DNA of 64,000 nucleotides from Candidatus Zambryskiibacteriota bacterium (GTDB lineage Bacteria > Patescibacteriota > Minisyncoccia > Phycocordibacterales > DATDWN01). Under the pieces are notes generated by a model. It was not told the origin of the DNA, did not search any database, and was given only the letters and a program-made list of their open reading frames with translations. The stretch spans positions 53,367 through 117,366 of the forward strand of contig JAPLZY010000008.1 of NCBI GenBank assembly GCA_026394775.1, written 5' to 3'. Of this stretch, positions 7,245-54,396 are shown piece by piece (the stretch's first letter is position 1; each line of letters opens with the position of its first letter). A program made the translations under genes and the position numbers.

Positions 7245-7466
7245 GTGATGTGCCGGGGTTGTAAGGTAACAACGTCAAATTTATTTGAGAGAAGTTAAAA
7301 AATAGTATGTTAATGGAATGCACTGGAAAGTGCGACCCTAGAGGGTAATAGTCCCGTACATGAAAATATACTATCTTCTTTGTTGTTATTCTTGAGTACC
7401 TCGAGACATGAATAGCTCGGGGGAATCTGCCGGTACTAACCGGTAAGGCTAAATACTTTTAGAGAT

Positions 7467-7505
<39 letters not shown>

Positions 7506-8922: not shown

Positions 8923-9416
<494 letters not shown>

Positions 9417-9955
9417 GCGCACGAATGGTGTAATGACTGGAAAACTGTCTCGGGGATTTGCTCGGTGAAAATACAATACCGGTGAAGATGCCGGTTACCT
9501 GCAGTTAGACGAAAAGACCCCAGGAGCTTTACTGCATCTTGATATTGAGAATATGACTTGCATGCGTAGCATAGTGGTGAGGATTTGAAGGGCACTCCCG
9601 GGTAGCCTGGATCCGTCAGTGAAATAGCCATCTTGTTTGTTATATTTTCTAACCTCGGCGGAAAAAACGACGAGAGACAGTGTCTGGTGGGCAGTTTTAG
9701 TGGGGCGCTATCCTCCTAAAAAGTAACGGAGGAGTTTATTAAGGTCAGCTAGCCGTGAATGGAAACCATGGCGATAGTGTAATGGCACAAGCTGGCTTAA
9801 CTGTGAGACGTACATGTCAAACAGATGCGAAAGCAGAACATAGTGAACCGACGGTCCGTGTTAGAGGCGGCCGGAGATTATCGGATAAAAGCTACCCTGG
9901 GGATAACAGGCTGGTTGTGCCTAAGCGTCCAAAGCGACGGCACAGTTCGGCACCT

Positions 9956-11295: not shown

Positions 11296-12105
11296 ATTGA
11301 ATTGCTACTTCAAGGAGTAATCCTTGATGAAATAGTGGCTAATAACGGTGAAGTCTTAAGTGTATTCTAGTCTGTTGATAACTATTCTTGTGACGGTCCG
11401 TCATGAGTAGTACAATTTGTTTAGTGATAAACAAGCTTGAAGACCAGAAATAATTAAGATAATACCGTGGGAAGTCGATCTATTATTGATAGAGCATATA
11501 TGCAGGATTTCTCGATGGCGATGGAAGCTTAATGCTTCAAATTAAGAAAAGAGCAGATGGAAAAAGTAAAATTCGTTTTATGGCAACCATTTGTTTCTAT
11601 CAAGATACTCGTCACGAAAAAGAATTGATTTGGATTCAGAAAGTTCTAGGTATCGGATACATCTCGCGCAGAAATGACGGGATGTCTGAGATTAGAATTA
11701 ATGGATTTAAAACAGTTAAAGAAATTCTGGAAGACTTGATACCATATATCAGGTTTAAAAGGATTCAAGCAAAAAGTTTGCTTGAATCGTGCACAATTTT
11801 GTCTTCGACAAAATTTAATATGCTCAATCGTGAACAGCTAACTAAACTTGTTAATCTTGTCTTAGTGATTCAGAATGAAAATTACGTCACTAAGAAGAAG
11901 AAAACACGAAGTGAATTGTTACAGATAATAGGTTTGACCCCGTAACGACTTGTTTGAGTAATGTCAAACAGATTTATGTAGTACTGGAAAGTCTTGTGTA
12001 CTGAAACATGAGACAGGGCTACATTTATAATACGCCAACACCCTCAACCTTTTAAGGTCGGGTGAAGATATAGTCTGTGCTCCTGGTAACAGGGGAATAA
12101 AACGA
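11296..12105 (+). mobile_element. group I intron 4 in 23S, inserted within the sarcin-ricin loop sequence (CTAGTA|CGAGAGGACC)
   Basis: Exon ...gcccctagta|...|cgagaggaccggggtgaactgacc. The downstream exon aligns base for base with E. coli 2658-2760. S-like ggtgaagatatagtctg is present near the 3' end. Confidence 0.65.
11458..11945 (+). pseudogene. degenerate I-CreI-like single-motif LAGLIDADG homing endonuclease (start codon lost, -1 frameshift before the motif)
   Basis: Frame 1 reads DNTVGSRSIIDRAY (compare MDNTAGSLTQL of the intact HEG), but its ATG is replaced by taaGAT. The frame shifts at about 11500-11504 into AGFLDGDGSLMLQIKKRADG...GIGYISRR..., which shows the I-CreI fold pattern. Confidence 0.6.
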
Positions 12106-12610: not shown

Positions 12611-12725
12611 TAGTTCTGGTGATTCGTCGCAAAGGTCACACCTGTTCTCATTCCGAACACAGTAGTTAAGCTTTGTTGAGGCGATGATACTCCGCAAGGG
12701 GGAAAGTAGCTAGTCGCCAGAACTA
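12611..12725 (+). rRNA. rrf: 5S rRNA
   Basis: agttctggtg...cacctgttctcattccgaacacag...ccagaacta. Helix I pairing and the conserved CCGAACAC loop are present. Confidence 0.85.
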
Positions 12726-22420: not shown

Positions 22421-22744
22421 ATAAAATTTGCTTTTGCAATTTTTACCAAGAGTTTGATCCTAGCTCAGGATGAACGCTGGCGGCGTGGATAAGGCATGCA
22501 AGTCGAGCGCCTCGCAAGAGGAGCGGCGAACGAGGTAGTAACACGTTGGTACACACCCTTTAGTCAGGAATAACTAGTCGAAAGATTAGCTAATACTTGA
22601 TAGTCTCTTCGGAGTAAAGATTTATCGCTAAAGGAGTGGCCTGCGGAGTATCAGCTAGTTGGTAAGGTAATGGCTTACCAAGGCTATGACGCTTAGAGGA
22701 CCTGAGAGGGTGACCCTCACCGATGGTACTGAGACACGGACCAT

Positions 22745-22775
<31 letters not shown>

Positions 22776-22904
22776 CCGCAATGGGCGAAAGCCTGACGGA
22801 GCGACGCCGCGTGATTGATGAAGTCCCTCTGGGATGTAAAGATCTTTTATGAGGGAGAAAGTTTATTGATAGTACCTCATGAATAAGGGGTTGCTAAACT
22901 CGTG

Positions 22905-23838
22905 AGAGGCAGATTAAGCATCTGCAATCCTAATTTAGTAACAGCATTAAAAATTCGTATTTACCGTGCGCGACTTTGAACCGTAAGGTTCTTAGCAAAT
23001 TCGGCTTATATGCTGGGACTCTGTACAGAGCTGCGTTCAACACATGTTGAATTCTCTACAGACAATCAGCAGGGAAGTCGGATATAATAAAGGTAATGTC
23101 TTTATCGCAAATTCAACAATATATTCTCACAGGGCTTTTGCTTGGAGATGGTTGTCTTGAACGAAAGTCCAAGAACAGCCGACTCCAGGTCAAACAGTCA
23201 GTAGGTAAGAAAGAATATGTATTCTGGTTATATAATTATTTTTCTGAATTCGTAAAAACTCCTCCCCAACAAAGGAAGGATACAAATCAGTGGTATTTTG
23301 CCACTCGATCTTTATCTCAATTTGAAGAATGGAATGCGGTGTTTTACAAAAACAGAAAGAAAATTGTTCCAGAAAATATATCAGAGTTATTGGCTTCGCC
23401 GATAACACTTGCCGTATGGATGATGGAACTCTCGATTATCGAGAGAAATCACATTATTCATTTACCTATAGTACTGACTCGTTTAGTGTAGAAGAGGTTT
23501 CTCTTCTACAGGATGCTTTGTTAGAAAACTTTGGGATAGAATCATCGATTCAAACTCCAAAGTCGCGAGGAAAAAAATATACAAAATTGTATATTGGAAA
23601 AAATGGGCGAGAGCGATTTATAAAAATCATTCAGCCTCACATCCTCGATTGTTTTCCGTATAAAGTGCCTCCAATTATATCTTGACCCCTCAGAGACTGA
23701 TCCTGCGGACATATTAATGTATGTCTTGAGGGTGAGATAGAGAGATTTTTTTAAATCTTCTATCAGACGCCGAACCCCATTTTTTATAGAATGGGTGATG
23801 ATATAGTCCAATCCTCGTAGTGATATGAGAACAACTGG
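22905..23838 (+). mobile_element. group I intron in the 16S 530-loop region (near E. coli 516-518) with a decayed HEG
   Basis: Exon ...gctaaactcgtg|...|ccagcagcagcggtaatac. R-like ccctcagagactgatcc and S-like ggtgatgatatagtcc are present. Confidence 0.75.
23096..23685 (+). pseudogene. frameshifted double-motif LAGLIDADG homing endonuclease
   Basis: Motif 1 LTGLLLGDGCL lies in one frame and motif 2 ...LAVWMM/MDDGTLDYREK continues in the -1 frame. The break is at about 23415-23430, within the direct repeat tggatgatgga. Confidence 0.65.
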
Positions 23839-24471
23839 CCAGCAGCAGCGGTAATACGAGTGCCCCAAGCGTTATCCGGAATTATTGGGCGTAAAGGGTG
23901 TGTAGGTGGTAGTGTTAGTCTTTTGTAAAATCTCCAGGCTTAACCTGGAAACCGCGAAAGAAACGGCACAACTAGAGGGTGCGAGGGATGTATGGAACTC
24001 ATGGAGTAGGGGTGAAATCCGTTGATATCATGGGGAACACCAAAAGCGAAGGCAATACATTGGCGCATTCCTGACACTGAAACACGAAAGCGTGGGTAGC
24101 GAATGGGATTAGATACCCCAGTAGTCCACGCCCTAAACGATCTTCTCTAGCTTTTCGGAGTATCGACCCTCTGAGAGGCGAAGCTAACGCGTTAAGAGAA
24201 GCGCCTGGGTAGTACGACCGCAAGGTTAAAACTCAAAGGAATAGACGGGGACTTGCACAAGCAGAGGATTATGTGGTTTAATTCGACGATAAACGAAGAA
24301 TCTTACCAAGGTTTGAAACCTAGCTGAATATATTTGGAAACAGATATAGTCTCACAAGGACAGTTAGGCAGGTGATGCATGGCCGTCGTCAGTTCGTGAT
24401 TTGAATTGTTCCCTTAAGTGGGGTAACGAACGCAACCCTCGTTGTCTGTTACAAGTGTCAGGCGAGACTGC

Positions 24472-24612
24472 TCAGCTCTTTGCGTAGAAAAGCAAAGAGG
24501 ACATAAAACAGAAACGAGATGAAACGATAACTATAAATAATAAGTAGAAAGTAAAAGAAGGAAGTGATTCGGGACGTCCCGTTTCTGTTAGCTTTTGTAA
24601 ATAAAGAGCTGA
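24472..24612 (+). other. ~130-nt expansion of 16S helix 40
   Basis: gactgctcagctcttt...aaagagctgag-aggaaggtg replaces the E. coli CCAGTGATAAACTGG hairpin. Confidence 0.5.
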
Positions 24613-24837
24613 GAGGAAGGTGAGGATGACGCCAGGTCAGCATGTCCCTCTGATACCTTGGGCTACACACATAATACAATGGTCACTACAACGCGTCGCG
24701 ACGGGGAAACCCTGAGCCAATCGTAATAAAAGTGGCCCCAGTTCGGATTGAGGGCTGAAACTCGACCTCATGAAGTTGGATTTGCTAGTAATCGCGGGTC
24801 AGACATACCGCGGTGAATACGTTCTCAAGTCTTGTAC

Positions 24838-25257
24838 TCAAAATTAAAAGCGCCGGGCAGGTAATAAATCTAGTTGGTTAAAATCCAACCTTGAAAAAGT
24901 AGCGAAAGGGTAATCTGCTGACCGTGAGGTTGGCAGGTGAAGGATCCTAGTAGCAAAAAGCAGCCTATTTATAAAAAGAGAGGTACGACCCATCAGGTGA
25001 GTCATGGGGAAGTATCAACAAAATTAAGTTTTTGGTCTCAAGTAGGATGCAAGGAACAGAGTTATTACTGACCCCTGGGAGATCTCATGGTGTAAAAGAC
25101 AATGAATAAGTACCTTGAGAAGTCAGCTGCGTCGTAGTAGTTTCGATCTAGTATCGGAATGAAGGACAAAATCGTTAGTTTTTGAAACTAACGAACTCGC
25201 GTAGTGCGGGAAATCCGCACGCTACGTGGGAACGCGAAATATTGTTAAATTATCGCC
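24838..25257 (+). mobile_element. ~420-nt intron-like insertion in 16S adjacent to the decoding-centre sequence (TTGTAC|...|CCGCCCGTCA), ORF-less, class uncertain
   Basis: The exons align to E. coli 1385-1405 with the insert between them. R/S-like gacccctgggagatc and cgatctagtatcgg are only loosely canonical. Confidence 0.55.
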
Positions 25258-31044: not shown

Positions 31045-33264
31045 ATGGACCCTCAAAAAATAACCTATTTTGGTGAGACCGATGCTCGAGGCAAAAAGAT
31101 CAAATTTGGTATCAAGGCCAAAGATCGCCTGAAGCATATGTACATTATCGGGAAAACCGGTATGGGTAAGTCGACTCTTCTTGAAAACTTAGCAATCCAA
31201 GATATTCAAAACGGCGAAGGCTTGGCTTTTGTTGACCCGCACGGAGGTACAGCAGAAAAACTTCTCGAGTATGTCCCTGAGCATCGTGTTAAAGATGTGT
31301 TGTATTTTGCACCTTTTGATATGGAGTACCCGATTTCTTTCAATGTGATGGAAGATATTGGGGCAGACAAAAGACACTTGGTGGTCAACGGTCTCATGTC
31401 TACGTTTGAAAAGATTTGGGTAGATGCGTGGTCTGCACGTATGGCGTATATTTTAAATAACACACTCTTGGCTCTTTTGGAGTACCCGGGCTCTACACTT
31501 CTTGGTGTAAACAAAATGCTTTCTGACAAAGAATACAGAAAGAGAGTGGTAGAAAATATAAAAGATACTTCAGTAAAAGCTTTCTGGGTAGACGAGTTTG
31601 GAAAGTGGACTGAAAAATTTATTGCAGAAGCGATCCCTGCAATCCAAAACAAGGTGGGGCAGTTTACTTCAAACCCGCTTGTTCGAAACCTGTTGGGTCA
31701 ACCGCAGTCATCTTTCGATATTCGAAAGATGATGGATGAGAAAAAGATCCTCATTGTAAACCTTTCAAAAGGTCGTGTGGGTGAAGGTAATGCAAACCTG
31801 ATCGGCTCGATGTTGATCACCAAAATATACCTCGCTGCTATGTCACGTGCAGATGCATCTGAAGCAGACCTCAACAAGCTTCCAAACTTCTACCTCTATG
31901 TAGACGAATTTCAATCTTTTGCCAACAAATCTTTTGCAGATATTTTGTCTGAGGCACGAAAATATAAACTCAATCTGACCATTGCTCACCAGTATATAGA
32001 ACAAATGGAAGAGGAGGTGAGAGACGCGGTTTTTGGTAACGTGGGAACCATGGTTACATTTCGTGTAGGAGCATTTGATGCGGAAGTTTTGGAAAAAGAA
32101 TTTGCTCCTGTGTTTACTGCTGAGGACTTGGTAAACCTTGGCTTTACCCAAATCTATCTGAAGCTCATGATTGACGGAGTTTCTTCGCAACCTTTTTCAG
32201 CTACCACCATGGCTCCTATTGCGCGCCCTGAAGTTTCTTTCAAGGAAGATGTTATCAATGCATCACGTCAACAGTTTGCAAACCCACGTATGGAAGTGGA
32301 AGAAAAGATCTTGAAATTTCATGAGGAAAACAGAGTAGAGTCTGGAGGCCAAAAAATGCAAGAGAGGGGGAGAAGTGACAACAGACCTAATGATCGACAG
32401 GAATTTAGAGGCGAGCGTCGAGATGAACGTCCAAATGACCGAATGAATGATAGGGGAAGTGGAGGTGCTGACCGGTCACATGATAGGCCGATGGATCGCC
32501 CTTTTGAGTCACGAGAAACTCCACGTCCATTTGAGAAAAAATTTGATACTCCGAAGCCTATATATACCGAGGTGCCACCTTTGGGAGTAGAACAAAAACC
32601 AGAAAACCCAAACGAAGATCAAAATAAAATGGCTTTTTTGAAAGTGGCAGAAGAGCTACGACAAAAAGAGTTATTGAAAAATCCTTCCCCAGAAAAAGAA
32701 GTTTCAACACCAGCATTGGAAACTCCTTCTCTACCTGCTCTTGCCTCGACCACATCTTTACCTGTTGTAAAAGCTGAAACAAGACCTGAGCCAGACCCAA
32801 AGCCTGTGGGGGGAAATATGCCTTCGACCAGTGCACCTGTTGTACCAAAAGTGTCTTTACAAGATTTGAAACCAAATCATGAAAAAGCAAAAGTACCAAC
32901 ACAAGAAAATATTTCAAGTCTAAAAAGTGCTCTTTCTTCGGTGCTTGCAAAAGCTGCGGTAGGGCAAAGTAAAGCGCCTGTAGTCCCAATAGCTCCCGTG
33001 AGGCCTGAGCCCGTGTCAGCACCTCTCGTAGCAAAAGTTGTTACCAAAGAGCCTGTAGAGGCTCCAAAGCAAGAACCAGAACGAGTCCAGCCAGTAGTGG
33101 AGACACAGAAGCCAGCACCAGAGGTAAAAGTACCAGAACCACCACAACAGAAAGAAGCGGTAGTCGAGCAGGAAAAACCTAAAGAATATGGTACTGTAAG
33201 CCAAGCTCCCTATGTGAAAGAAGTGCCAGAAGACGTATTACGCACATTGCTTAAAATGGAGTAG
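31045..33264 (+). CDS. P-loop ATPase of the TraG/VirD4/HerA (DUF87-like) clade with ~330-aa disordered C-terminal tail
   Basis: Walker A IIGKTGMGKSTL and Walker B LYVDEFQSF. The C-terminus carries DR-dipeptide repeats (RPNDRQEFRGERRDERPNDRMNDRG...) and a Pro/Glu/Lys/Val-rich low-complexity region. Confidence 0.55.
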   Translation: MDPQKITYFGETDARGKKIKFGIKAKDRLKHMYIIGKTGMGKSTLLENLAIQDIQNGEGLAFVDPHGGTAEKLLEYVPEHRVKDVLYFAPFDMEYPISFNVMEDIGADKRHLVVNGLMSTFEKIWVDAWSARMAYILNNTLLALLEYPGSTLLGVNKMLSDKEYRKRVVENIKDTSVKAFWVDEFGKWTEKFIAEAIPAIQNKVGQFTSNPLVRNLLGQPQSSFDIRKMMDEKKILIVNLSKGRVGEGNANLIGSMLITKIYLAAMSRADASEADLNKLPNFYLYVDEFQSFANKSFADILSEARKYKLNLTIAHQYIEQMEEEVRDAVFGNVGTMVTFRVGAFDAEVLEKEFAPVFTAEDLVNLGFTQIYLKLMIDGVSSQPFSATTMAPIARPEVSFKEDVINASRQQFANPRMEVEEKILKFHEENRVESGGQKMQERGRSDNRPNDRQEFRGERRDERPNDRMNDRGSGGADRSHDRPMDRPFESRETPRPFEKKFDTPKPIYTEVPPLGVEQKPENPNEDQNKMAFLKVAEELRQKELLKNPSPEKEVSTPALETPSLPALASTTSLPVVKAETRPEPDPKPVGGNMPSTSAPVVPKVSLQDLKPNHEKAKVPTQENISSLKSALSSVLAKAAVGQSKAPVVPIAPVRPEPVSAPLVAKVVTKEPVEAPKQEPERVQPVVETQKPAPEVKVPEPPQQKEAVVEQEKPKEYGTVSQAPYVKEVPEDVLRTLLKME

Positions 33265-40798: not shown

Positions 40799-41512
40799 AT
40801 GTATAGAGGTAAAAAAGTAAGTGTTGTTATACCAACATATAATGAATCTCAGACTATCAGACAAGTGATCGATAGTTTTTTTGCGACAGGTTTTGTCGAT
40901 GAGGTGTTGGTGGTAGACAACAATGCAATCGGGAATACAAAAGAAGAGGTGGGTAAGACTCGGGCACGATTGATAGTGGAAACCAAGCAGGGTTATGGAA
41001 ATGCATTGATGTGCGGCCTTGCACAAGCGTCGGGAGATTTGGTTGTTATGGTGGAAGCGGATGGTACGTTTGAGCCTGCGGATTTACATAAGTTTCTACT
41101 TTACAGTGACGACTTTCCGGTAGTTTTTGGTACTCGCACATCACGTGCAGCTATTTGGTCTGGAGCTTTCATGCCGTTTCCGGTACGTTTTGCCAACTGG
41201 CTCTGGGCGAAGGTGATTGAAGTTTTGTATAATGGTCCTGTCCTCACCGATGTGGGCTGTACGTTTAAACTAATCAACCGAAACTCTCTTGAGAAAATAA
41301 AAAAATACTTTGCCTTGTCGAAAGGGGACGGCACCTTTTCTCCAGAGTTGATGATATGGCTTGTTCACCACGAAAAGAAAATCATCGAAATTCCTGTGAT
41401 TTACAAAGAACGAGTGGGTGAGTCAGGGTATACAGGTAGTGTATGGAAAGCAGGGAAGCTTGGATTTAAAATGTTGCCACTTATTATCAAATATAGATTT
41501 AAGAAAATATAA
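40799..41512 (+). CDS. GT2 family glycosyltransferase (DPM1/ArnC-like)
   Basis: VSVVIPTYNESQTI...VVDNN...MVEADG. Confidence 0.8.
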   Translation: MYRGKKVSVVIPTYNESQTIRQVIDSFFATGFVDEVLVVDNNAIGNTKEEVGKTRARLIVETKQGYGNALMCGLAQASGDLVVMVEADGTFEPADLHKFLLYSDDFPVVFGTRTSRAAIWSGAFMPFPVRFANWLWAKVIEVLYNGPVLTDVGCTFKLINRNSLEKIKKYFALSKGDGTFSPELMIWLVHHEKKIIEIPVIYKERVGESGYTGSVWKAGKLGFKMLPLIIKYRFKKI

Positions 41513-43011
41513 TGTACCTTGCTCGTATTAAAGATGTTATAAAAAATAATAAAACAGAAATTATTATTTTTTTTGTTGCAATTTTTTTCTCATTCTGCGC
41601 TTTTTATTTTAATACCGTTAAATTTCAGAACGATGATCAGTTTACTATTTACCGGTATATAGAAAACATAGCGGATGGAAAGGGTTTTGTATTTAATGAA
41701 GGTGAGCGTGTTCTCGGCTCAACCACACCGCTCTTTACACTGCTTGGTGCGATATTGAAATATATATTTCCAACTGTTTCAACTCAGTTGTTGATTGCAG
41801 TATTAAATTCACTGCTCATCTCTTTGTCGGCCGTGTGGTTTTTTAGGTTGAGCACCCTCATGATGTCACGGCAGTTTTCCTTGGCTTCAGTTTTTATTTT
41901 TATATTACATATGTCAAAAACTGTATCCGCAGGAATGGAAACCCCACTGTGCGTACTTTTCTTTTTGATTTTTCTTGCTTATGTTTTTTCGGGTCGTCAT
42001 ATGTATGCCGCACTTGCCCTCGGGGGTGCCATACTCACTCGTCCGGATGCTTTGTTGGTTGCAGCGCTTGCGTGTGTTTTTTGGCTTACAACTATTGGGT
42101 TTAAGAAAACAGTTGTGTACGGACTTGTTATGTCCGCCGTAATATTTCCGTGGACTATGTTTGCAACACTGTATTTCGGATCACCAATACCTCAATCTCT
42201 GGTAACCAAGTCGCATGTTTCTGATATTGTCTATCAACCAAGATTCCAGGCATTTAAAGGCCAACTTGCAGAAATGAGTCGAATGTATTGGGGTAAAGTT
42301 ATTGACCCAGAAAATATTCCAGTTCAGTCGGTAATAAATCTATTACCTTTTCTTGTGATGGTAGCTTTTGGTGTGCGGTATTATGGGAAGAAATATTGGC
42401 TATTGTTTGCTATTCCATTGGCGTATCTTATAAGTTATGGATATTCAAACCCGGTTATGTATCCGTGGTATATAAGTCAGCTTACTCCGTTTTGGCTCCT
42501 GTGCTCTCTTTTGGGTGTGTATAAAATTTATGAGTATGTTGTCGAGAGGGTGGGGTCACATCAGCGGTGGATATATGCAGGTGTAATTACGTTGCTTGTT
42601 TTTGGTCCTTTGTACGGCTACGCACAGCTCGCTGGCTCTCGTGGTGAAGGAAGTAAGATCACGTTATATAAAATGGCGCTCTATATTAAAGAGCATAAAC
42701 AAGTTGGTGATACGGTTGGCTTAAGTAATATTGGTATTGTAAGTCATACACTGAACGATACCTACATCTATGATTTTATTGGCCTGACACGTAAAGACAC
42801 TCTAAAATATTATCCGATCAAAGATGAGTGTCTCGTCAAAAATCAATATGTCATACCTCCACAAATGGTAAAAGATATGCAACCCGATTGGATTATTGCA
42901 GGTGAGGCTGAGTGGGTACCGTGCTTTGTGCAGAGTGAATGGTTTTTGTCTCGTTATAAACCGGTATACAATGCGGGTACGACTGCATATGTGTGGCAGA
43001 AAATAAAGTAG
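41512..43011 (+). CDS. polytopic membrane protein, putative GT-C glycosyltransferase (ArnT-like)
   Basis: 499 aa with about 11 TM helices. Lies between a GT2 and an SMR-type gene. Confidence 0.45.
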   Translation: MYLARIKDVIKNNKTEIIIFFVAIFFSFCAFYFNTVKFQNDDQFTIYRYIENIADGKGFVFNEGERVLGSTTPLFTLLGAILKYIFPTVSTQLLIAVLNSLLISLSAVWFFRLSTLMMSRQFSLASVFIFILHMSKTVSAGMETPLCVLFFLIFLAYVFSGRHMYAALALGGAILTRPDALLVAALACVFWLTTIGFKKTVVYGLVMSAVIFPWTMFATLYFGSPIPQSLVTKSHVSDIVYQPRFQAFKGQLAEMSRMYWGKVIDPENIPVQSVINLLPFLVMVAFGVRYYGKKYWLLFAIPLAYLISYGYSNPVMYPWYISQLTPFWLLCSLLGVYKIYEYVVERVGSHQRWIYAGVITLLVFGPLYGYAQLAGSRGEGSKITLYKMALYIKEHKQVGDTVGLSNIGIVSHTLNDTYIYDFIGLTRKDTLKYYPIKDECLVKNQYVIPPQMVKDMQPDWIIAGEAEWVPCFVQSEWFLSRYKPVYNAGTTAYVWQKIK

Positions 43012-43376
43012 TACTTATGGCTTATATATATCTTATATGTGCGTTTATATTGAATGCCTCAGGAAATATTTTTCTGAAGCTCGGTTCTCGGCAGGGCCTC
43101 AATTTTTCTTCGTTTGTTCCAACTGTATTTTTGTTTTCAAACTGGCAGTTTGTTCTCGGATGTGTGCTGTTTGTTTTAAACGTACCTCTTTATTTTCTTG
43201 CATTAAGAAACATAGAACTTTCTACTGCGTATCCGATCATGGTCGGAATGAGTTTTCTTATTGTAAACAGTACAGCATTCTTTTTGTTTAAAGAGTCGGT
43301 GAGTGTGTTGCAAATACTTGGGTATGTGTGTATGGTGGTGGGTATTATACTTGTGGTTGCATATGGACGTCCGTAG
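42993..43376 (+). CDS. SMR/EamA-like 4-TM transporter (ArnE/ArnF-like flippase subunit)
   Basis: 127 aa with four TM helices. NASGNIFLKLG is ArnE/EmrE-like. Confidence 0.5.
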   Translation: MAENKVVLMAYIYLICAFILNASGNIFLKLGSRQGLNFSSFVPTVFLFSNWQFVLGCVLFVLNVPLYFLALRNIELSTAYPIMVGMSFLIVNSTAFFLFKESVSVLQILGYVCMVVGIILVVAYGRP

Positions 43377-44631
43377 AAATACTATTTATACAGCAGAACT
43401 CAGATACGCACCCGAGAGTACTTTGATACTCGATATTGACGGTACTCTTGTGCCGGATAAGTCAAATCACATACCACGAGATCTTTTTCTATATATTGAG
43501 CAACTAAAATCTTCCCATCGGGTATATGTTTGCTCCAATGGTGATGTAGGGCGCACAGAAAGTATTGCCAAAAAATTAGGAGTACCGGTACTTGAAGTAC
43601 ATAAGCCGTTTGGAAAAATACCTGACTTTTGGTCACCTGAAGGTGATGTGCTGGTGGTGGGTGACAAATACCTCACGGACGGTTTGTTTGCAGAAAGATT
43701 GAATGCACGTTTTATAAAAGTTGATCATGTGAAGTCCTATACCGACTCTCGAAACATTAATATTTCATATGCACTCGATGATGTGGTTTGGTTTGCAAAA
43801 CTTGCTGTAAAACTAGCAAGACCTTTTCAGTGGGTAAAAAATATTTTAGTCTATGCTCCGTTGTTTTTTGCAAGTGAATTTTTAACGATAAAACTTGTCG
43901 ATGTTACGCTTGCATGTATTATTTTTTCAGTATCTGCGAGTGCGGTATATATATTCAATGATATAAGTGATGCAAGTAAAGATGCGCTACATCCGGTGAA
44001 AAAATACAGACCGATCGCATCTGGTCAAATGTCACATACGCAAGCATATATATTGCTTTTTGTATTGCTGTGTATTGTTGGTGTCGGTCTTTATGTATTG
44101 CCGGTACTTTTCTTACCTATACTTTTATATATAAGTGCAAACATTTTATATTCGAAGTGGCTAAAACACGTTGCTGTTCTCGACATGCTACTGGTGGCTT
44201 CTTTTTATGTTGTGCGAGTTGTGGCGGGAGGAATGGTTGCTCAGGTGCCATTGTCTCCATGGATACTCCTCTGTGTCTTTTTTGGAGCCTTGTTTATTGT
44301 GGTAGGGAAAAGAAGAGCGGAGTATGGTAGAGAGGTCAGAAGAGAGGTGCTCGAAGAATATTCAGAAAAAGCTCTAGACTATATGTTTGCCGGGTCTGTG
44401 GCGATAGCCATTCTTACCTACGGTATTTACACTATTATAGGTCACATATCTTCGTATCTTGTGTACTCAACATTTTTTGTGGTGCTTGCACTGTTTCGTG
44501 TACTCAATCGCATCTATACACACCCAGAGCAAGCAGAATCACCCGAAGTGCTCGTCTTTAAAGATCTTTTTGTACTCGGGTCTTTTGTCGCATGGGGCAT
44601 ATATGTGTTTATAGTTTTTTATATTACATAA
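43363..44631 (+). CDS. fusion protein: N-terminal HAD-superfamily phosphatase domain plus C-terminal UbiA-family prenyl-phosphate phosphoribosyl/glycosyl-transferase (DPPR-synthase-like)
   Basis: HAD motif I LILDIDGTLVPD and motif GDKYLTDG. UbiA Asp-rich motifs NDISDASKDALHP and VVGKRRAE across about nine TM helices. ATG at 43363 overlaps the previous stop by 14 nt. Confidence 0.6.
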   Translation: MDVRRNTIYTAELRYAPESTLILDIDGTLVPDKSNHIPRDLFLYIEQLKSSHRVYVCSNGDVGRTESIAKKLGVPVLEVHKPFGKIPDFWSPEGDVLVVGDKYLTDGLFAERLNARFIKVDHVKSYTDSRNINISYALDDVVWFAKLAVKLARPFQWVKNILVYAPLFFASEFLTIKLVDVTLACIIFSVSASAVYIFNDISDASKDALHPVKKYRPIASGQMSHTQAYILLFVLLCIVGVGLYVLPVLFLPILLYISANILYSKWLKHVAVLDMLLVASFYVVRVVAGGMVAQVPLSPWILLCVFFGALFIVVGKRRAEYGREVRREVLEEYSEKALDYMFAGSVAIAILTYGIYTIIGHISSYLVYSTFFVVLALFRVLNRIYTHPEQAESPEVLVFKDLFVLGSFVAWGIYVFIVFYIT

Positions 44632-44729: not shown

Positions 44730-45185
44730 ATGCCGTGGATGGGGACTGTAGGCAGCTTCCTCTCAATTCCTCTGTGTGTAGGTGTCGTTCGTCTTGGTGT
44801 CTATACGGGACACCCCTTAGGAGTACTCGTAATAGCTAGTGCTCTTACATTGTTACTGGGAGTTTGGAGTATCCCAGTGGCTGAAAAATTGCTTGGTCCG
44901 AGGACGGATCCATTTAAAAGGGTTCGTAGTCACGATCATAACCAGATCGCTATAGATGAAACACTGGGGATGTTGGTGGGTACAATCGCACTGATACTTA
45001 CAGCGCATACCAGTTGGATTCACTACGGTTTACTTTTTATTGTATTTCGTTTTTTTGACGTCATCAAAGTGTGGCCAGCATCGTATTTCGACAACACACA
45101 AAGTCCGTGGGCTGTAATGCTCGACGATGTGTGTGCAGGTATATACGCCGCAGCTGTGCTTTACAGCTTGTTCATTTTTATATAA
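44730..45185 (+). CDS. phosphatidylglycerophosphatase A (PgpA) family protein
   Basis: MGTVGSF, DETLGM and LDDVCAG are conserved PgpA motifs. GC is about 48%. Confidence 0.6.
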   Translation: MPWMGTVGSFLSIPLCVGVVRLGVYTGHPLGVLVIASALTLLLGVWSIPVAEKLLGPRTDPFKRVRSHDHNQIAIDETLGMLVGTIALILTAHTSWIHYGLLFIVFRFFDVIKVWPASYFDNTQSPWAVMLDDVCAGIYAAAVLYSLFIFI

Positions 45186-45204
45186 CAAAAGGCAAGGGGA
45201 GTTT

Positions 45205-45765
45205 ATGAGTAAATTTCAGTTGGTATGCGGGCTTTTAAACCCTAGGCTGAAGGCGATGTATTCGAAAGATTTTGATGGTGCTACTGCAGTTATTGCGGCA
45301 CCGTTTAATCGGTATTTACCAAACGAAACACCTGATGTGTCTAATGCTCAAATTGCAGACATTGCAGGAAAAATATGTAAGCAAGTGGGGTTAGCCTTCT
45401 TAGGTCAAGGTGAACAGGTAGACATACTTGATTCACGGGTTTGTTCGGTGAGGTATCGATCACAAGCCGGAGCGTGGGTGCAGACTCATGTGCTGGTCCG
45501 CTGGATTGCCGCTGAAGTTCTTAAATTAGGCAAAGGATCAACTGTGGTACTGGTGGGACATCCACACCATGTTCGGAGGATTTCGTTACTTGCTCGATAC
45601 TATCGTTTAAACCCTTTGGTGTCTGCTAGGTGTGAATCAGTCCCGTACGATGGGTCTGATCGCGAGGGTGCTCAATGGTGGTGTAAGTCTGTGTGGAGGT
45701 ATATTCCTTGGGAGTATGCTTCCCGGGCAGTGCTTATTGCGAAGCTCTTGATGGGACAAATATGA
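45205..45765 (+). CDS. hypothetical protein (possibly DUF218/YdcF-like)
   Basis: ATG at 45205 after aagggga. GC is about 50%. VVLVGHPHHVRR. Confidence 0.4.
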   Translation: MSKFQLVCGLLNPRLKAMYSKDFDGATAVIAAPFNRYLPNETPDVSNAQIADIAGKICKQVGLAFLGQGEQVDILDSRVCSVRYRSQAGAWVQTHVLVRWIAAEVLKLGKGSTVVLVGHPHHVRRISLLARYYRLNPLVSARCESVPYDGSDREGAQWWCKSVWRYIPWEYASRAVLIAKLLMGQI

Positions 45766-45778
45766 CAAATATGAAGAG

Positions 45779-45808
45779 TGACAGGTTGGCAGTATGCCAA
45801 CCTGTTTT
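45779..45808 (+). terminator. rho-independent terminator
   Basis: acaggttggc-agtat-gccaacctgt followed by TTTTTT. Confidence 0.75.
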
Positions 45809-45834: not shown

Positions 45835-46875
45835 TTGACTATGAAATATTTTATAACAGGAGGATCTGGTTTTTTGGGAATAAATTTGACTCGACATCTT
45901 TTGAGTCGAGGACATGAGGTAATAATATATGACTTGTTGCCTTTTGACTACCCTGAAAAAAATAAAGTTACGTCGATAATCGGTGATATTAGAAATTTTG
46001 ATTTTCTGAAAGAAAGCATGAAGGGTGCTGATATTGTAGTGCATACGGCAGCGGCATTGCCATTGTATAGTACAGAGGATATCCGAACAACAGATATCGA
46101 TGGTACGAGAAACGTGTGTCAGGCTTCATTCGATAACGGGGTAGCGCGTATGGTGCATATTTCTTCAACAGCGGTATACGGCATTCCAGACCACCATCCG
46201 CTTTTTGAGACAGATAAACTCGATGGTGTTGGTGAGTACGGCAAAGCTAAAATAGCAGCTGAAGAGATTTGTAAAAATTTTAGAAAAAAAGGTTTGGTAG
46301 TGCCAATACTTCGACCAAAGTCTTTCATAGGTCCTGAGCGACTAGGTGTATTTGCATTGTTCTATGATTGGGCTTCGACAGGTCACGGTTTTCCTATGAT
46401 TGGTAACGGCAAAAACAGATACCAGCTCATGGATGTTGAAGATTTTTGTGAAGGAATATACCTTGCTGCAACTGTGGATGCGTCTAAAGCAAATGATGTA
46501 TTTAATTTTGGAGCGAAAGAATTTATGACAATGAAAGAAGACTACCAGGCGGTGCTCGATGAAGCAGGGTTTGGTAAAAAAATATCAGGTTTTCCTGCAA
46601 CTCCAATGATCTGGACTCTGAGGCTTCTTGAGTTGTTGCACATTTCACCACTCTACAAATGGGTCTACGAGACTGCATCTAAAGATAGTTTTGTGTCTAT
46701 ACAAAAAGCAGAGGAGGTGCTTGGATATGCACCAACATATTCAAATAAAGACGCCTTGGTAAGAAATTATAAGTGGTATCTTGAACACAGAAAAGATTTT
46801 GAAGGAAAAAGTGGAGTGTCACATCGAGTACCATGGAAGCAGGGAATACTTGGTTTTGCAAAATTGTTTTTCTAA
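45835..46875 (+). CDS. NAD-dependent epimerase/dehydratase
   Basis: YFITGGSGFLGINLTRHLL and YGKAKIAAE. Confidence 0.8.
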   Translation: MTMKYFITGGSGFLGINLTRHLLSRGHEVIIYDLLPFDYPEKNKVTSIIGDIRNFDFLKESMKGADIVVHTAAALPLYSTEDIRTTDIDGTRNVCQASFDNGVARMVHISSTAVYGIPDHHPLFETDKLDGVGEYGKAKIAAEEICKNFRKKGLVVPILRPKSFIGPERLGVFALFYDWASTGHGFPMIGNGKNRYQLMDVEDFCEGIYLAATVDASKANDVFNFGAKEFMTMKEDYQAVLDEAGFGKKISGFPATPMIWTLRLLELLHISPLYKWVYETASKDSFVSIQKAEEVLGYAPTYSNKDALVRNYKWYLEHRKDFEGKSGVSHRVPWKQGILGFAKLFF

Positions 46876-46944: not shown

Positions 46945-48633
46945 ATGACATCAATTAAACAGTGGTTTGTAGGCCATCAATACTGGATTATTCTCGCGGT
47001 GCTGTTTATCTCATTTTTAACACTTCGTCTCCCGGGTCTTGATATTCCGTACCATCAAGACGAATATAAATGGCCACTCTACGCCAACCCTGCAGTGTTT
47101 GCACCAGGGAGTGTGCCACATCCACCGCTTACGGAGTTGATCTATCGTGTAGGAGGTCATGCAATTGGATATGATAATTTCCGAATGATACCCCTGGGTT
47201 TTAGTGTGTTAAATTTTCTTCTTGTTGCATACGCGGGGTATCTAATGTTTGGGAAAAGAGGTTCGTTGTGGATTTCTGGATTATTCACATTTTCTTTTTA
47301 TGGGTTACTTGCGTCACTGACGGTGGATGTTGACGGTGCGGTGATGGTGTTCTTTTTTCTTTCTGCACTCGTTTGCTATTTGAATTTTAAATCAAAAGAG
47401 TATCGCGTCTCAAAAAGTACGATATTTTGGTTACTTGGTTTTATTATTTCAATAGCACTCGGTTTTCTTATAAAGCTTAGTTTTATTATTCCTATCGGAG
47501 TATTCGCAACAGATTTCTTTTTAGAAAAAGGATATTTTAAAAATAAGAAAAAGATACTGTTGTCTCTTGGGTATAGTGTCGTAGGGCTACTTAGTCTTGG
47601 TTTACTCGTGTATCTTTCTCAGTTTTTGTTTCCGTTTTTTAGACTCGGATGGTCAATAGGATATTGGGATACTTTTATTAAATTTTCACACCGCGGATGG
47701 TTTCAGACGGGGATACAGTTTGCAAAAGCGCTGATGTATCTTTCACCTTTTTTAGTACTTGTTCCATTGCTTTCCACGAAAGAGCTGTATAAGCAAAACA
47801 GAATATTCTGGTTGTTTATTGGGTACGGTCTCGTGTTTTACCTTTTTTTGTTTGATTTCTCTATTGGAGCGCTTGATCGATATTTTGCTTTTTTGGTTGT
47901 ACCGCTGTGTTTTATTGTAGGGTCTGTGTTTGCAAAAGAGTCTGAATCTTCAGATGGAAGGGTGGCTATTCAAAAAAGAGACACTGTGTTTATTTTGCTA
48001 CTCAGTTCTATCATCTTCGGTTCTCAGTTTTTGGCACACAGTGTGCCACCACAACACCCAAAGGCCGAATGGATTAATGCAATAACTTCAATGCATTGGA
48101 ACTTCCTCTTTCCGTTTACAGGAGGTTCGGGTCCTACTGGTTTCTATATGTCATTTTTTCTAATTGGTATCACCTGGGTCATTTCGTTTTTATTTGTCTT
48201 GTTTGTTCGCACTAAACCTCGATTTAAAAAGGTCATACTTTTTTTCTTGCTGGTGCTCGGTATTCTTTACAACGGAGTGTTTATAGAAGAGTACGTATAT
48301 GGACGTATTAACGGTAGTCCGTATGGTCTTTTTGCAAACGCAAAGAACTTTATTATTGAAAATAAAGATATTACGCAGGTTGTGGTTTATAATGATATCG
48401 GTGGATATGAAATACGAGAGACAGGGAAATACGCAAGACGTATGTATGCCACCCCGCAGTTTAGTGCAGAATATGAAAAATATTTCTCTACATTTAGCGG
48501 ACACGTGCTCTATATAGATATTCCGCGGATCGGAAAAGATACCATGTATATGAATTATTTTAATACATGTCAGGTGATATATTCTGATACAGACAAAAAC
48601 GTTCACGCCACAATTTACGATTGTAGAAAATAA
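46945..48633 (+). CDS. GT-C family membrane glycosyltransferase (ArnT/PMT-like)
   Basis: More than 12 TM helices. An early loop carries YHQDEYKW (DE motif). Confidence 0.55.
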   Translation: MTSIKQWFVGHQYWIILAVLFISFLTLRLPGLDIPYHQDEYKWPLYANPAVFAPGSVPHPPLTELIYRVGGHAIGYDNFRMIPLGFSVLNFLLVAYAGYLMFGKRGSLWISGLFTFSFYGLLASLTVDVDGAVMVFFFLSALVCYLNFKSKEYRVSKSTIFWLLGFIISIALGFLIKLSFIIPIGVFATDFFLEKGYFKNKKKILLSLGYSVVGLLSLGLLVYLSQFLFPFFRLGWSIGYWDTFIKFSHRGWFQTGIQFAKALMYLSPFLVLVPLLSTKELYKQNRIFWLFIGYGLVFYLFLFDFSIGALDRYFAFLVVPLCFIVGSVFAKESESSDGRVAIQKRDTVFILLLSSIIFGSQFLAHSVPPQHPKAEWINAITSMHWNFLFPFTGGSGPTGFYMSFFLIGITWVISFLFVLFVRTKPRFKKVILFFLLVLGILYNGVFIEEYVYGRINGSPYGLFANAKNFIIENKDITQVVVYNDIGGYEIRETGKYARRMYATPQFSAEYEKYFSTFSGHVLYIDIPRIGKDTMYMNYFNTCQVIYSDTDKNVHATIYDCRK

Positions 48634-52104: not shown

Positions 52105-53016
52105 TTGTGTATGGAACCTATGAAATCATTCTTTAGACCTCTCTGGAATTCCCCGATTGTCTATCGTGTAAGAGGAGTATTGTTCGATGTTTGCGAAGTC
52201 CTGACAGGCTATAGTGTAGAGAAAAAAAGATTTGAATCCAAAGTGGGCTATGTTCCTAACATACAGCATCCACGAAGTTTTAGTGAACATATTGTGTACA
52301 AAAAACTCTATGACCGCAACCCCTTGTTGGCTGTTGTGTCTGATAAATATGCAGTAAGAGGGTATATAAAAAAAATTCTTGGAGAAGAGGAGTCGAGCAA
52401 GGTTTTAATACCACTTCTCTATGCGACAAGTGATCTGCAAACAATCCCTTTCGACACGCTCTCTGGTGAATACATTATAAAAGCAAACCACAATTCCGGT
52501 CCGCATTTTATTGTTGAGAAAAACCAAATTCCAGACAGGGAACATATTATTTCAAGTCTCGAGAAACAGATTGCAATACCCTATGGCATATTAAAGCATG
52601 AGTGGGCATACAAAAAAATAAAAAATAAAATGGTGGTGGTGGAGCGTCTTCTTCGAGATGAAGACGGTAATATACCAAAAGATTATAAGTTCCATATGGT
52701 GAAAGGCCAGTGTGTTTTTATCCAGGTAGACTTTGACCGTTTTTCTAATCATTCACGAACACTCTATGACAAAGACTGGAACTATCTGCCGGTTACTTTA
52801 AAGTTTCCACAGGGTCCAGAGAAAGAAAGACCGGAGAATTTGGATAAAATGCTCAAACTCGCAACCCTCTTGTCGGCAGGATTTGATTATATACGTATTG
52901 ATCTTTATACTATCAAAGAAGATGTATATTTCGGAGAAATGACACACTATCCTGGCTCAGGGATGGAAAAATTTACACCAGAAGAGTTTGATTTTACACT
53001 CGGAACATATTGGTAG
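52105..53016 (+). CDS. putative ATP-grasp enzyme (TupA-like)
   Basis: YIIKANHNSGPHFIV ... GEMTHYPGSG. Placement within a glycan locus supports the call. The fit is weak. Confidence 0.4.
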   Translation: MCMEPMKSFFRPLWNSPIVYRVRGVLFDVCEVLTGYSVEKKRFESKVGYVPNIQHPRSFSEHIVYKKLYDRNPLLAVVSDKYAVRGYIKKILGEEESSKVLIPLLYATSDLQTIPFDTLSGEYIIKANHNSGPHFIVEKNQIPDREHIISSLEKQIAIPYGILKHEWAYKKIKNKMVVVERLLRDEDGNIPKDYKFHMVKGQCVFIQVDFDRFSNHSRTLYDKDWNYLPVTLKFPQGPEKERPENLDKMLKLATLLSAGFDYIRIDLYTIKEDVYFGEMTHYPGSGMEKFTPEEFDFTLGTYW

Positions 53017-53025
53017 CTTATATAT

Positions 53026-54396
53026 ATGACAGAAAAACATTTTAATCCTCAAGTTTCTTGTGTACAGACGGGCGAGATGTACCCGGATTTTCCGTATGCT
53101 TCAGGTGGAGAATTAGAGAAAAACCTCAGAGATCTTTTAGAAGGTCTCGGCCTTTCAAGAGAAAATCCTTTTTCTTCATATGTAAAACCTGGTCAAACTG
53201 TATTGATCAAACCAAACTGGGTAAGAGATCGAAACCCACTCGGATACGACATATCTTCTCTTATTACCCACACATCTCTGATTAAATACGTAATTGATTT
53301 TTTGCTTGTCGCTATGGAAGGAAAAGGGAAGATAGTGATTGCTGATGCACCGCTTCAAAATTGTAATTTCTCTAACCTTAGAAAAGAAATCCGAATTGAT
53401 GAGTTGGTAGAAAGTGTGCTTAAAAAGTATCCAGATATGGATATTGTCATTGAAGACTGGAGGCTCACTACGATACGTAGTTCAGATACGCATGAACCAA
53501 AGGTTCAAAATTTTAAAGAGAGTTCAGAATACAGACTTGTTGATCTGGGTAAAGAGAGTTTACTTGAAGATGTTTCAAAATATTCAGATAGATTTAGGGT
53601 TACAAAGTATAAAAGAAGTTTGATGGCTCCGCATCATCAAAAGGGTATTCATGAATACTTGGTCTCTCGACGTATTCATGAGGCTGATTTTTTTATAAAT
53701 ATGCCAAAAATGAAGACGCATATTAAGGCAGGTCTTACATGTTCAATGAAGAACTTGGTAGGTATCAATGGTCACAAAGAGTTTTTACCACATCACATCA
53801 AAGGTTCGTATTTTGAAGGAGGAGACAACTACTCTCGCTCAAGCTGGCTTCGTGCTCGCTATGAAGATCTCTATGATTATGTATGGGAAAATATCAATAA
53901 CTTTTCGGTTCTTAAAAGAAAAATATTGATGCGAGCACTTCAGTACCTATGGGCCTTGGCAAATATTGTAGATAAAGAAAATATTTCAGCGGGAAGTTGG
54001 AGAGGGAATGATACTATATGGCGTACTACTCTCGACCTCAACCATATTGCCTATTTTGATGGAGCTAAGCCTCTAAAGATCCTTACTATAGTTGACGGTA
54101 TCATTGCAGGTGAAGGTCAGGGTCCGCTTGAGCCTACACCTAAACCTCTCGGGATTCTTTTGGCAGGAGAAAACCCTGCGTATATCGATGCTGTTGTGGC
54201 GCAGATGATGGGCTTTACTGTTGCCCGAATACCGACCGTATACAACGCTATCTATAACAGGAAATCAAAATTTTCAGATGTCTTTTTGGAAGATTTTAAA
54301 CTCGATTTCAAAGATCAAGAAGGGACTAAAAAAGTAGTGTTTTCTGAGATTCCTGATTTTAATTTTAAAAAGCCTTTGTTTTGGGAAGGGGCTTAA
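53026..54396 (+). CDS. hypothetical protein (DUF362-like)
   Basis: 456 aa, soluble, with GKIVIADAPLQNC. Confidence 0.35.
   Translation: MTEKHFNPQVSCVQTGEMYPDFPYASGGELEKNLRDLLEGLGLSRENPFSSYVKPGQTVLIKPNWVRDRNPLGYDISSLITHTSLIKYVIDFLLVAMEGKGKIVIADAPLQNCNFSNLRKEIRIDELVESVLKKYPDMDIVIEDWRLTTIRSSDTHEPKVQNFKESSEYRLVDLGKESLLEDVSKYSDRFRVTKYKRSLMAPHHQKGIHEYLVSRRIHEADFFINMPKMKTHIKAGLTCSMKNLVGINGHKEFLPHHIKGSYFEGGDNYSRSSWLRARYEDLYDYVWENINNFSVLKRKILMRALQYLWALANIVDKENISAGSWRGNDTIWRTTLDLNHIAYFDGAKPLKILTIVDGIIAGEGQGPLEPTPKPLGILLAGENPAYIDAVVAQMMGFTVARIPTVYNAIYNRKSKFSDVFLEDFKLDFKDQEGTKKVVFSEIPDFNFKKPLFWEGA

Follow-up and report, generated by a model that had tools for sequence, protein, structure and literature searches.

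A HAD-UbiA fusion protein in a Patescibacteria surface-glycan cluster and its predicted role in pentofuranose glycosylation

What would be made by a protein in which a HAD phosphatase-like domain is joined to a UbiA-type membrane transferase, and with which neighbours would it act? This question is raised by a 64,000-nucleotide (nt) stretch of contig JAPLZY010000008.1 from a Candidatus Zambryskiibacteriota bacterium (~40% G+C; hereafter the window), where four tightly packed, co-directional open reading frames (ORFs) on the + strand at 40799-44631 encode a GT2 glycosyltransferase, a GT-C protein of 499 amino acids (aa), a small SMR-like membrane protein and, last, the HAD-UbiA protein. An initial annotation of this DNA had given the same gene order, with which our ORFs agree. 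We put at about 0.7 the probability that the region forms, within a Wzx/Wzy-type surface-glycan cluster, the core of a three-component module for extracytoplasmic pentofuranose glycosylation.

The fusion is genuine and under selection. In a search of 5.8 billion proteins grouped into 90%-identity clusters, it was recovered at full length in more than 100 clusters (34-74% identity, 95-100% query coverage), all from Patescibacteria or unclassified metagenomes, and its neighbourhood recurs in 13 related loci, so that the arrangement is far beyond chance. One GenBank entry, from a Candidatus Zambryskibacteria metagenome-assembled genome, is 100% identical to the window protein. A scan of genome contigs with a UbiA-only pattern gave about seven fusion loci among the matches listed, most matches being actinobacterial stand-alone DPPRS genes. 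In the single 422-aa polypeptide, HAD is N-terminal and UbiA C-terminal: residues 20-124 match HAD-IIIA/YqeG and phosphatidylglycerophosphate (PGP) phosphatase models, and residues 145-421 match decaprenyl-phosphate phosphoribosyltransferase models. The two motifs named in the initial annotation, DIDGT and NDxxDxxxD, are residues 24-28 (nt 43432-43446) and 199-207 (NDISDASKD, nt 43957-43983), respectively. An AlphaFold2 model, built with an alignment of 72 full-length homologues that also serves for the conservation counts given below, is confident over the whole chain (predicted local distance difference test, pLDDT, 94.9; predicted template modelling score, pTM, 0.89); in it, residues 130-152 form a long helix between the HAD core, which is minimal and Rossmannoid, and the nine transmembrane (TM) helices of the UbiA fold. 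The architecture first described is thereby confirmed. The GenBank protein of a Zambryskibacteria orthologue (P0081, 287 aa; locus L001, 9983-11251) begins after the HAD part, and taken at face value it would make the fusion an artefact of annotation or assembly, the true gene starting downstream of an N-terminal segment that is not translated or is a pseudo-domain. We give this reading almost no weight. The annotation is a truncated call, since the complete 422-aa ORF, with every HAD motif, can be read in the DNA; the domain and its catalytic residues are retained in 72 independent homologues of full length, drawn from many samples; and the model of the whole chain is confident. A start downstream of the HAD domain is ruled out by this conservation.

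The C-terminal half is, as had been proposed, closely related to Rv3806c in sequence (E 6.6e-39 against 8j8j), in fold (Foldseek of the TM part against 8j8j: E 7e-14, template modelling score for the target 0.83, 33% identity; the next UbiA structures lie at E ~2e-5) and in its contacts with phosphoribosyl pyrophosphate (PRPP). In Rv3806c, K28, Y70 and Y157 bind the 5′-phosphate of PRPP, N73 and D77 contact Mg2+ and pyrophosphate, and Q135 contacts ribose O3 (PMC10994848). A HMMER alignment maps K28, Y70, N73, D77, Q135 and Y157 onto K159, Y196, N199, D203, N260 and Y282; K159, Y196, N199 and D203 are found in all 72 homologues, N260, where Asn replaces Gln, in 64, and Y282 also in 64, with Phe in seven more. 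The Asp-rich loop (N199, D200, D203, D207) is likewise invariant (72/72), and K316, R317 and E320 are further key residues. Since the 5′-phosphate pocket is conserved, the lipid product should carry a 5′-phosphate, and a phosphatase is therefore needed. The domain scores 178.3 bits against the DPPR synthase model NF008977 (cut-off 234), 174.9 against NF008978 (207) and 139 against NF008976 (474), and is therefore a relative, not a member, of the actinobacterial equivalogs; from its sequence it is predicted to be a polyprenyl-phosphate 5-phosphoribosyltransferase. The Asp-rich loop of Rv3806c is on cytoplasmic loop 1, after TM2 (PMC10994848), so that the N-terminus of Rv3806c is cytoplasmic; an N-terminal HAD domain would then face the same side of the membrane as the site of transfer.

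The N-terminal half has the complete HAD motif set, DxD...S...K...GDxxxD, with each position kept in 69-72 of the 72 homologues. D24 and D26 of motif I are invariant and T28 is found in 69; S58 and N59 of motif II are each found in 70; K81 and P82 of motif III and G100, D101 and D106 of motif IV (G100-D101-K102...D106 in the window) are invariant. The core strands of the model (residues 20-24, 53-57, 96-100 and 116-119) alternate with helices at pLDDT above 90. No cap is inserted, as motifs I and II are separated by 30 residues forming one helix and motifs II and III by 23 residues. PF09419 matches the isolated domain with 22.2 bits (cut-off 20.4) and 17 of 20 homologous domains, whereas TIGR01668 (YqeG) reaches 40 bits (E 3e-10) against a cut-off of 89 and TIGR01662 reaches 20.8 bits against 44.6. 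Judged by these scores, the HAD-IIIA/YqeG/PGP phosphatase group is the nearest subfamily, and the domain lies outside the YqeG equivalog. A phmmer search of the PDB with residues 1-146 alone gave no match; with a profile of 20 sequences of this segment, all PDB matches were HAD phosphatases (best E 3e-4). Foldseek matches of the full model to HAD domains are weak (E ~0.1) because the UbiA part dominates the query.

The two-step logic suggested at the outset, phosphoribosyl transfer followed by removal of the 5-phosphate, is well founded and has an experimental precedent. In vitro, ORF15 of Citrobacter youngae, in which an N-terminal HAD phosphoribosyl-phosphatase is combined with a C-terminal Rv3806c-like UbiA domain, uses PRPP to form farnesyl-phospho-ribofuranose (Kelly et al., PNAS 2024, PMC11127046), and its D18A mutant accumulates the 5-phosphate form (PMC11127046). 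ORF15 is accompanied by a small EmrE/ArnEF-like transporter (ORF14) and by the GT-C protein ORF12, founding member of GT136; in serotype O2 the SDR epimerase ORF13 converts ribofuranose (Ribf) to xylofuranose (Xylf); and this "three-component system" is called widespread, systems with several GT-Cs being noted (PMC11127046). Fig. S4 of that paper labels EmrE/ArnEF-like small transporters "MATE" and GtrA/Rv3789 "SMR", and ORF14 is therefore probably of the same type as the PF00893 protein of the window. The C. youngae O1/O2 loci and the window are alike in having a HAD-UbiA protein, a small transporter, an SDR and a GT-C within a surface-polysaccharide locus. They differ in three respects. First, the HAD domain of ORF15 has an α-helical cap and the protein is ~50-70 residues longer, whereas the window domain is of the capless IIIA type. 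Second, ORF12 is an ArnT-like GT136 enzyme, whereas the window GT-C is AftB-like. Third, the host phylum, Patescibacteria, is not mentioned in the survey of Kelly et al. (PMC11127046).

ORF15 and ORF12-14 were compared by their published description, with plasmid-borne NF006088 members and a fecal phage-like contig as stand-ins; the supplementary information of the paper, where residue numbering and taxa agree, suggests that ORF15 is an NF006088-type protein. NF006088 (PRK08238) describes single-chain HAD+UbiA proteins of Alpha- and Betaproteobacteria, encoded near GT-C-type or GtrA genes and epimerase genes, and full-length examples occur in 80 plasmid records. With ORF15 biochemically proven, a family model for such fusions and these plasmid records, the view that a covalent fusion of the two activities would be unusual is not supported. 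The plasmid protein of Paracoccus methylovorus (WP_205295244) scores 576 bits against NF006088 over positions 9-480, has HAD-IB matches and adjoins a GT87 GT-C; that of Rhizobium leguminosarum (WP_094088385, plasmid), a HAD-IB-UbiA fusion, is followed by GtrA, a flavin adenine dinucleotide (FAD) oxidoreductase, an SDR and a 518-aa hypothetical protein. These fusions carry a capped HAD-IB domain, whereas the window protein matches only the UbiA part of NF006088 (positions 186-378, 145 bits against a cut-off of 351), and the Rhizobium partners include GtrA, a DprE1-like FAD oxidoreductase and a DprE2-like SDR where the window has a single extended SDR. An unfused set is found on a fecal "Bacteriophage sp." contig (MT837543.1, locus L088, 898-5419), which encodes in a row a UbiA protein of 293 aa, a HAD-IB protein of 199 aa, an SMR protein of 118 aa, an SDR of 321 aa and a DUF6044 membrane protein of 565 aa; from this gene set, DUF6044 may be a GT-C family that uses polyprenyl-phospho-pentofuranose. 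An hhalign comparison of the HAD profile from the candidate phyla radiation (CPR) with the HAD-IB partner on this contig found no significant similarity (probability 2.4%). The same job appears to be filled by two different HAD subfamilies. This shows that phosphoribosyl transfer and dephosphorylation were coupled at least twice, with unrelated HAD subfamilies, which supports an advantage of channelling the 5-phosphorylated lipid intermediate.

By analogy with ORF15, the HAD domain is predicted to be a 5′-phosphatase acting on polyprenyl-phospho-ribose-5-phosphate. An exhaustive search with the CPR HAD profile gave 197 representatives at E <= 1e-30, and among the best 150 of these, 111 have stand-alone size (135-200 aa, ~150 aa), 24 have the size of HAD-UbiA proteins and 15 have other lengths; the five proteins of other length that were inspected (P0267, P0304, P0274, P0247, P0375) are fused to a DPM1-like GT2, two GT-C-like proteins (at either end), a Wzx-like flippase and GtrA. 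Where the domain is unfused it still adjoins UbiA, in the order SMR, HAD (156 aa), UbiA (281 aa), SDR with overlapping genes in L090, and in the order UbiA, HAD, SMR, SDR in L007. In our reading, the domain may need a membrane tether close to its lipid substrate, the tether itself being variable. The predominance of stand-alone forms and the unrelated fusion partners would also fit a more general enzyme, that is, a membrane-tethered PGP phosphatase or a recycler of polyprenyl diphosphate, with the 5′-phosphate removed by another enzyme such as PgpA; the best Pfam family of the domain is that of the mitochondrial PGP phosphatase, and a PgpA gene lies directly downstream of the fusion in the window. 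We regard this as very unlikely, because PgpA is absent from all 13 related loci, the unfused domain keeps its place beside UbiA in overlapping or adjacent frames (L090, L007), all fusion partners are proteins of polyprenyl-linked glycan pathways, the conserved 5′-phosphate pocket of UbiA requires a phosphatase, and in ORF15, the analogue with biochemical proof, this very step is carried out by a HAD domain.

The predicted 5-phosphoribosyl transfer and dephosphorylation belong to a functional unit larger than 40799-44631 (Table 1), the interval to which the initial annotation had confined the module; it reaches downstream to an SDR, the most conserved partner of the fusion, and to a second, 562-aa GT-C. 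The neighbourhood was compared through gene tables of seven homologous loci and by searching 13 loci that carry the fusion with the window proteins in tblastn. The module is also carried by Saccharibacteria metagenome-assembled genomes (L003, L010). Of the two overlaps between stop and start codons that had been described, the one at the fusion (43376/43363) stands: translation from the ATG at 43363, the same start as in close homologues (MDVRRNTIYT), gives an overlap of 14 nt with the end of the SMR gene. The other (43011/42993) requires a GTG start, whereas SMR orthologues align from the ATG at 43017, so that a 5-nt gap after the GT-C gene is the more likely junction from the sequence. The GT2 and 499-aa GT-C genes share 1 nt, at 41512. 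Fusion and SDR are separated in the window by PgpA, an unknown ORF and a hairpin (44730-45806), which are absent from all 13 related loci; this segment therefore looks like an insertion and is probably not part of the module. In a promoter and terminator scan, counts were not above those in shuffled sequence, apart from the strong hairpin at 45780-45806.

Table 1. Coordinates of the module and of adjoining features in the window.
Feature	Position	Strand	Remarks
GT2 glycosyltransferase	40799-41512	+	237 aa; PF00535 E 6e-22
AftB-like GT-C	41512-43011	+	499 aa; GT-C fold in AlphaFold model; no Pfam match
SMR/ArnE-F-like 4-TM protein	43017-43376	+	119 aa; PF00893; alternative GTG start 42993
HAD-UbiA protein, predicted bifunctional	43363-44631	+	422 aa
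Capless HAD-IIIA-type phosphatase domain	43414-43746	+	residues 18-128 of the 422-aa protein
UbiA-superfamily phosphoribosyltransferase domain	43795-44628	+	residues 145-422; nine TM helices
PgpA	44730-45185	+	PF04608 E 2e-26
Unknown ORF	~45205-45765	+	~186 aa; between PgpA and hairpin
Terminator-like hairpin	45780-45806		12 pairs, then T-run
Extended SDR "epimerase"	45841-46875	+	344 aa; PF01370 E 4e-37
Second multi-pass membrane protein, probable PMT_2/ArnT-type GT-C	46945-48633	+	562 aa

The SDR (motifs TGGSGFLG at residue 6 and YGKAK at residue 133) is encoded immediately downstream of HAD-UbiA in 10 of the 13 loci as a protein of ~345 aa and, at 64-81% identity across loci against 37-53% for the fusion, it is the most conserved gene of the neighbourhood. 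Its orthologues (59-79% identity) also stand beside unfused UbiA in Gracilibacteria, in a Spirochaetaceae metagenome-assembled genome (L049), on a 3.6-Mb contig (L012) and elsewhere. In the PDB it has no close solved relative, the best match being a dTDP-glucose dehydratase (88 bits). By analogy with ORF13, it is a candidate polyprenyl-phospho-pentofuranose epimerase. The C-terminal segment of the SDR, PWKQGILGFAKLFF, looks amphipathic. The 562-aa protein, with ~12 hydrophobic segments, is present in 4 of the 13 loci, with weaker paralogues in two more; its orthologues in L001, L081, L082 and L085 (42-48% identity) carry PF13231 (PMT_2) matches, and the window copy itself matches nothing in Pfam or NCBIfam. 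Comparison of the two GT-Cs (499 and 562 aa) and the DUF6044 protein of the phage-like contig with one another detected no similarity.

The 499-aa protein, present in 7 of the 13 loci, has the GT-C fold that had been assigned to it, with ~11-12 TM helices and a C-terminal extracytoplasmic α/β domain (AlphaFold pLDDT 94.3, pTM 0.93), and in both sequence and modelled structure it is AftB-like, not ArnT-like as had been supposed. The fold is of the GT-C(A) type, and Foldseek ranks AftB (GT89; 9dlh/9dlf) first and second (E 5e-8, template modelling score for the query 0.61), ArnT 14th and AftA 23rd. A profile of 64 family sequences has a single PDB sequence match, AftB of M. chubuense (E 3.9e-18, over residues 17-233), in which D41-D42 (nt 41632-41637) align with AftB D61-D62 and R177 (nt 42040-42042) with R221; D41, D42 and R177 are invariant in 64/64, and AftB R372 falls outside the aligned part. 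As AftB uses decaprenyl-phospho-arabinofuranose as donor, the 499-aa GT-C is a good candidate for a pentofuranosyl transferase. AftB D62 is the proposed catalytic nucleophile, its alanine mutant being inactive, and R221 stabilises the leaving phosphate (PMC12041299). Against the AftB equivalog model NF041481 the protein scores 30.6 bits (cut-off 1050), the match being limited to the N-terminal 100 residues, and neither Pfam nor NCBIfam gave an ArnT or PMT match for the protein. The family is confined to CPR-type sequences, with 75 clusters at 37% identity or above followed by a sharp drop in score; 28 of the 75, and 23 of the 43 on contigs of at least 10 kb, have the same longest-contig size as a listed fusion match, which we use as a surrogate for a shared contig.

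The SMR protein was correctly described as a 4-TM member of its family (PF00893, 32.4 bits against a cut-off of 23.7; four hydrophobic segments), and an orthologue adjoins HAD-UbiA in 9 of the 13 loci. It gives weak matches to the ArnF and ArnE models of NCBIfam. At what we take to be the position of the proton-coupling Glu of E. coli EmrE, 10 of 10 SMR orthologues have Asn, and the protein is therefore probably not a drug/H+ antiporter. It is a candidate flippase of a polyprenyl-phosphate sugar.

The GT2 protein has no TM segment and resembles polyprenyl-phosphate sugar synthases (AglJ, DPM, ArnC). Its best NCBIfam matches are to the AglJ and dolichyl-phosphate hexose transferase models, far below their cut-offs, and its best PDB match is ArnC (9hwj, E 7e-10). 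Orthologues with 68-74% identity are encoded directly upstream of the 499-aa GT-C in L001, L082 and L085, and four clusters (P0139, P0142, P0149, P0164) join the two proteins in a single chain of ~730 aa, which implies that they work together. Most likely the GT2 makes a second polyprenyl-phosphate sugar donor or partners the AftB-like GT-C. The window does share with the Arn pathway a GT2 that would load undecaprenyl phosphate, a small SMR-type flippase and transfer by a GT-C; it has one SMR gene where Arn has a pair, and its GT-C is AftB-like. The label of an Arn-like module, given in the initial annotation, is not supported: the window GT2 and SMR score far below the cut-offs of the Arn families (ArnC 44 bits against 529, ArnF 31 against 99, ArnE 25 against 92), and no ArnA/B/D-like protein, as would be expected for synthesis of 4-amino-4-deoxyarabinose (Ara4N), was found in a profile scan of the 20 neighbouring ORFs within 31045-55214.

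A division of the region into two sets is the reading that comes nearest to the initial annotation. In one, GT2, the 499-aa GT-C and SMR would be self-contained, a hexose or amino sugar being loaded by GT2 from a nucleotide sugar onto polyprenyl phosphate, flipped by SMR and transferred by the GT-C in the manner of Arn or Gtr systems, and HAD-UbiA would belong to the other, with the SDR and the 562-aa GT-C. The 1-nt overlap, the order of GT2 and GT-C in L001, L082 and L085, the single-chain forms and the ArnC match of the GT2 all agree with this, as does the order UbiA-SDR-GT-C (PMT_2-like) in L001, L082, L083, L084 and L085; on the phage-like contig, too, the large membrane protein follows the SDR. 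Such a division is in our judgement unlikely, however, since the 499-aa GT-C resembles specifically AftB, a pentofuranosyl transferase, and in L010, L086 and the locus of P0012 it adjoins SMR-HAD-UbiA-SDR with no GT2 beside it, a GT2 paralogue pairing there with the PMT_2-like GT-C. SMR, moreover, stays with HAD-UbiA where the 499-aa GT-C is absent (L083, L084, L090), and the low Arn-family scores and the lack of Ara4N-synthesis genes count against an Arn-type set as well. The two-set arrangement and the pentofuranose module are compatible and not mutually exclusive.

The analysis shows the domain identities, folds, conserved catalytic residues and synteny; from these we infer, for the pentofuranose module as a whole, the following substrates and order of steps, as well as the donor of each GT-C, the epimer and the acceptor. 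On the cytoplasmic face, the UbiA domain would move 5-phosphoribosyl from PRPP to polyprenyl (probably undecaprenyl) phosphate, and the HAD domain, held on the same face by the long helix, would strip the 5′-phosphate to leave polyprenyl-phospho-ribofuranose. The SDR would then probably convert the lipid-linked ribose to another pentofuranose, either arabinofuranose (Araf) or Xylf, the SMR/ArnEF-like protein would flip the lipid-linked sugar, and the AftB-like GT-C, the PMT_2-like GT-C or both would put the pentofuranose on a cell-surface glycan. The module sits inside a ~25-kb glycan cluster (33279-58727) with six GT4 proteins, GtrA, another epimerase, further GT2s, methyltransferases, a Wzx-type flippase and Wzy_C-TPR, in an order that is the same in L082 and L085, and a Wzx/Wzy-made surface glycan is therefore the likely acceptor.

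Several points weigh against this proposal. The subfamily of the window HAD domain differs from that of the proven phosphoribosyl-phosphatase domain, so that its substrate is read only from linkage and precedent, and the fusions of the domain to GT2, GT-C, Wzx-like and GtrA proteins could mean that its substrate is another lipid-linked phosphate of a more general kind. The UbiA domain lies below the NCBIfam equivalog cut-offs, and the biochemical proof on which the analogy draws stems from C. youngae ORF15, outside Patescibacteria. As for the transferase, the GT-C that follows the SDR in most loci is the PMT_2-like and not the AftB-like one, and the GT2+GT-C gene fusions suggest that the AftB-like GT-C may use the product of the GT2. 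Finally, the module is without a DprE1-type FAD oxidase.

The last point is best seen beside the mycobacterial decaprenyl-phospho-arabinose (DPA) pathway, which likewise has a UbiA PRPP transferase with the same contacts followed by dephosphorylation, and whose AftB shares the DD motif and the Arg with the 499-aa GT-C. There, the phosphatase (Rv3807c) is a separate protein of an unrelated family, whereas the phosphatase domain of the window is fused; epimerisation is carried out by the FAD oxidase DprE1 and the classical SDR DprE2, whereas the window has a single extended SDR; the flippase is of another type (Rv3789); and AftB has 669 aa against 499 aa for the window GT-C. In M. tuberculosis, the gene aftB (Rv3805c) also adjoins Rv3806c. 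DprE1 and DprE2 are a pair of tuberculosis drug targets, and the lone SDR is a candidate one-enzyme alternative to them that could serve glycoengineering.

We suggest, tentatively and as an idea that could well prove wrong, that Patescibacteria widely encode a streamlined route resembling that to arabinan precursors, with an independently recruited capless HAD-IIIA domain that is tethered to any available membrane enzyme of the pathway, a lone, extremely conserved SDR replacing DprE1 and DprE2, and AftB-like GT-Cs that use the product. If this is true, these ultra-small, host-dependent bacteria would bear an arabino- or xylofuranose envelope, a phylum-wide and previously unrecognised feature of their surface glycans. 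The proposed module predicts that such cells make polyprenyl-phospho-pentofuranose and a pentofuranose-containing surface glycan. The envelope glycans of CPR bacteria are almost unknown, and as the cells attach to hosts, surface chemistry probably decides the interaction. A literature search linking Patescibacteria with UbiA phosphoribosyltransferases found nothing. Current understanding is not overturned here: the HAD-UbiA fusion and its pathway were already known from the discovery of 2024, to which a further phylum and a further domain architecture are added, and what is new is the HAD-IIIA subfamily, its variable tethering, the lone extended SDR, the AftB-like GT-C and the phylum.

Also encoded in the glycan cluster, and conserved in L081, are a TupA-like ATP-grasp protein (52105-53016) and a protein with DUF362 (53026-54396). 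A TrwB/VirD4-like coupling ATPase (31045-33264) is encoded directly before the cluster, as it is in L082 and L085. Elsewhere in the window, the genes for 16S and 23S rRNA are unlinked, and both are interrupted. Two LAGLIDADG endonuclease ORFs (10085-10663, 11532-11945) come after the 23S gene (6848-10013) and before the 5S gene (12615-12722). The 16S gene is split into 22450-22976 and 23689-24889, the space between being occupied by a LAGLIDADG_2 ORF (23096-23491), and a match to group-II-intron D1-D4 (25082-25167) lies just past the gene.

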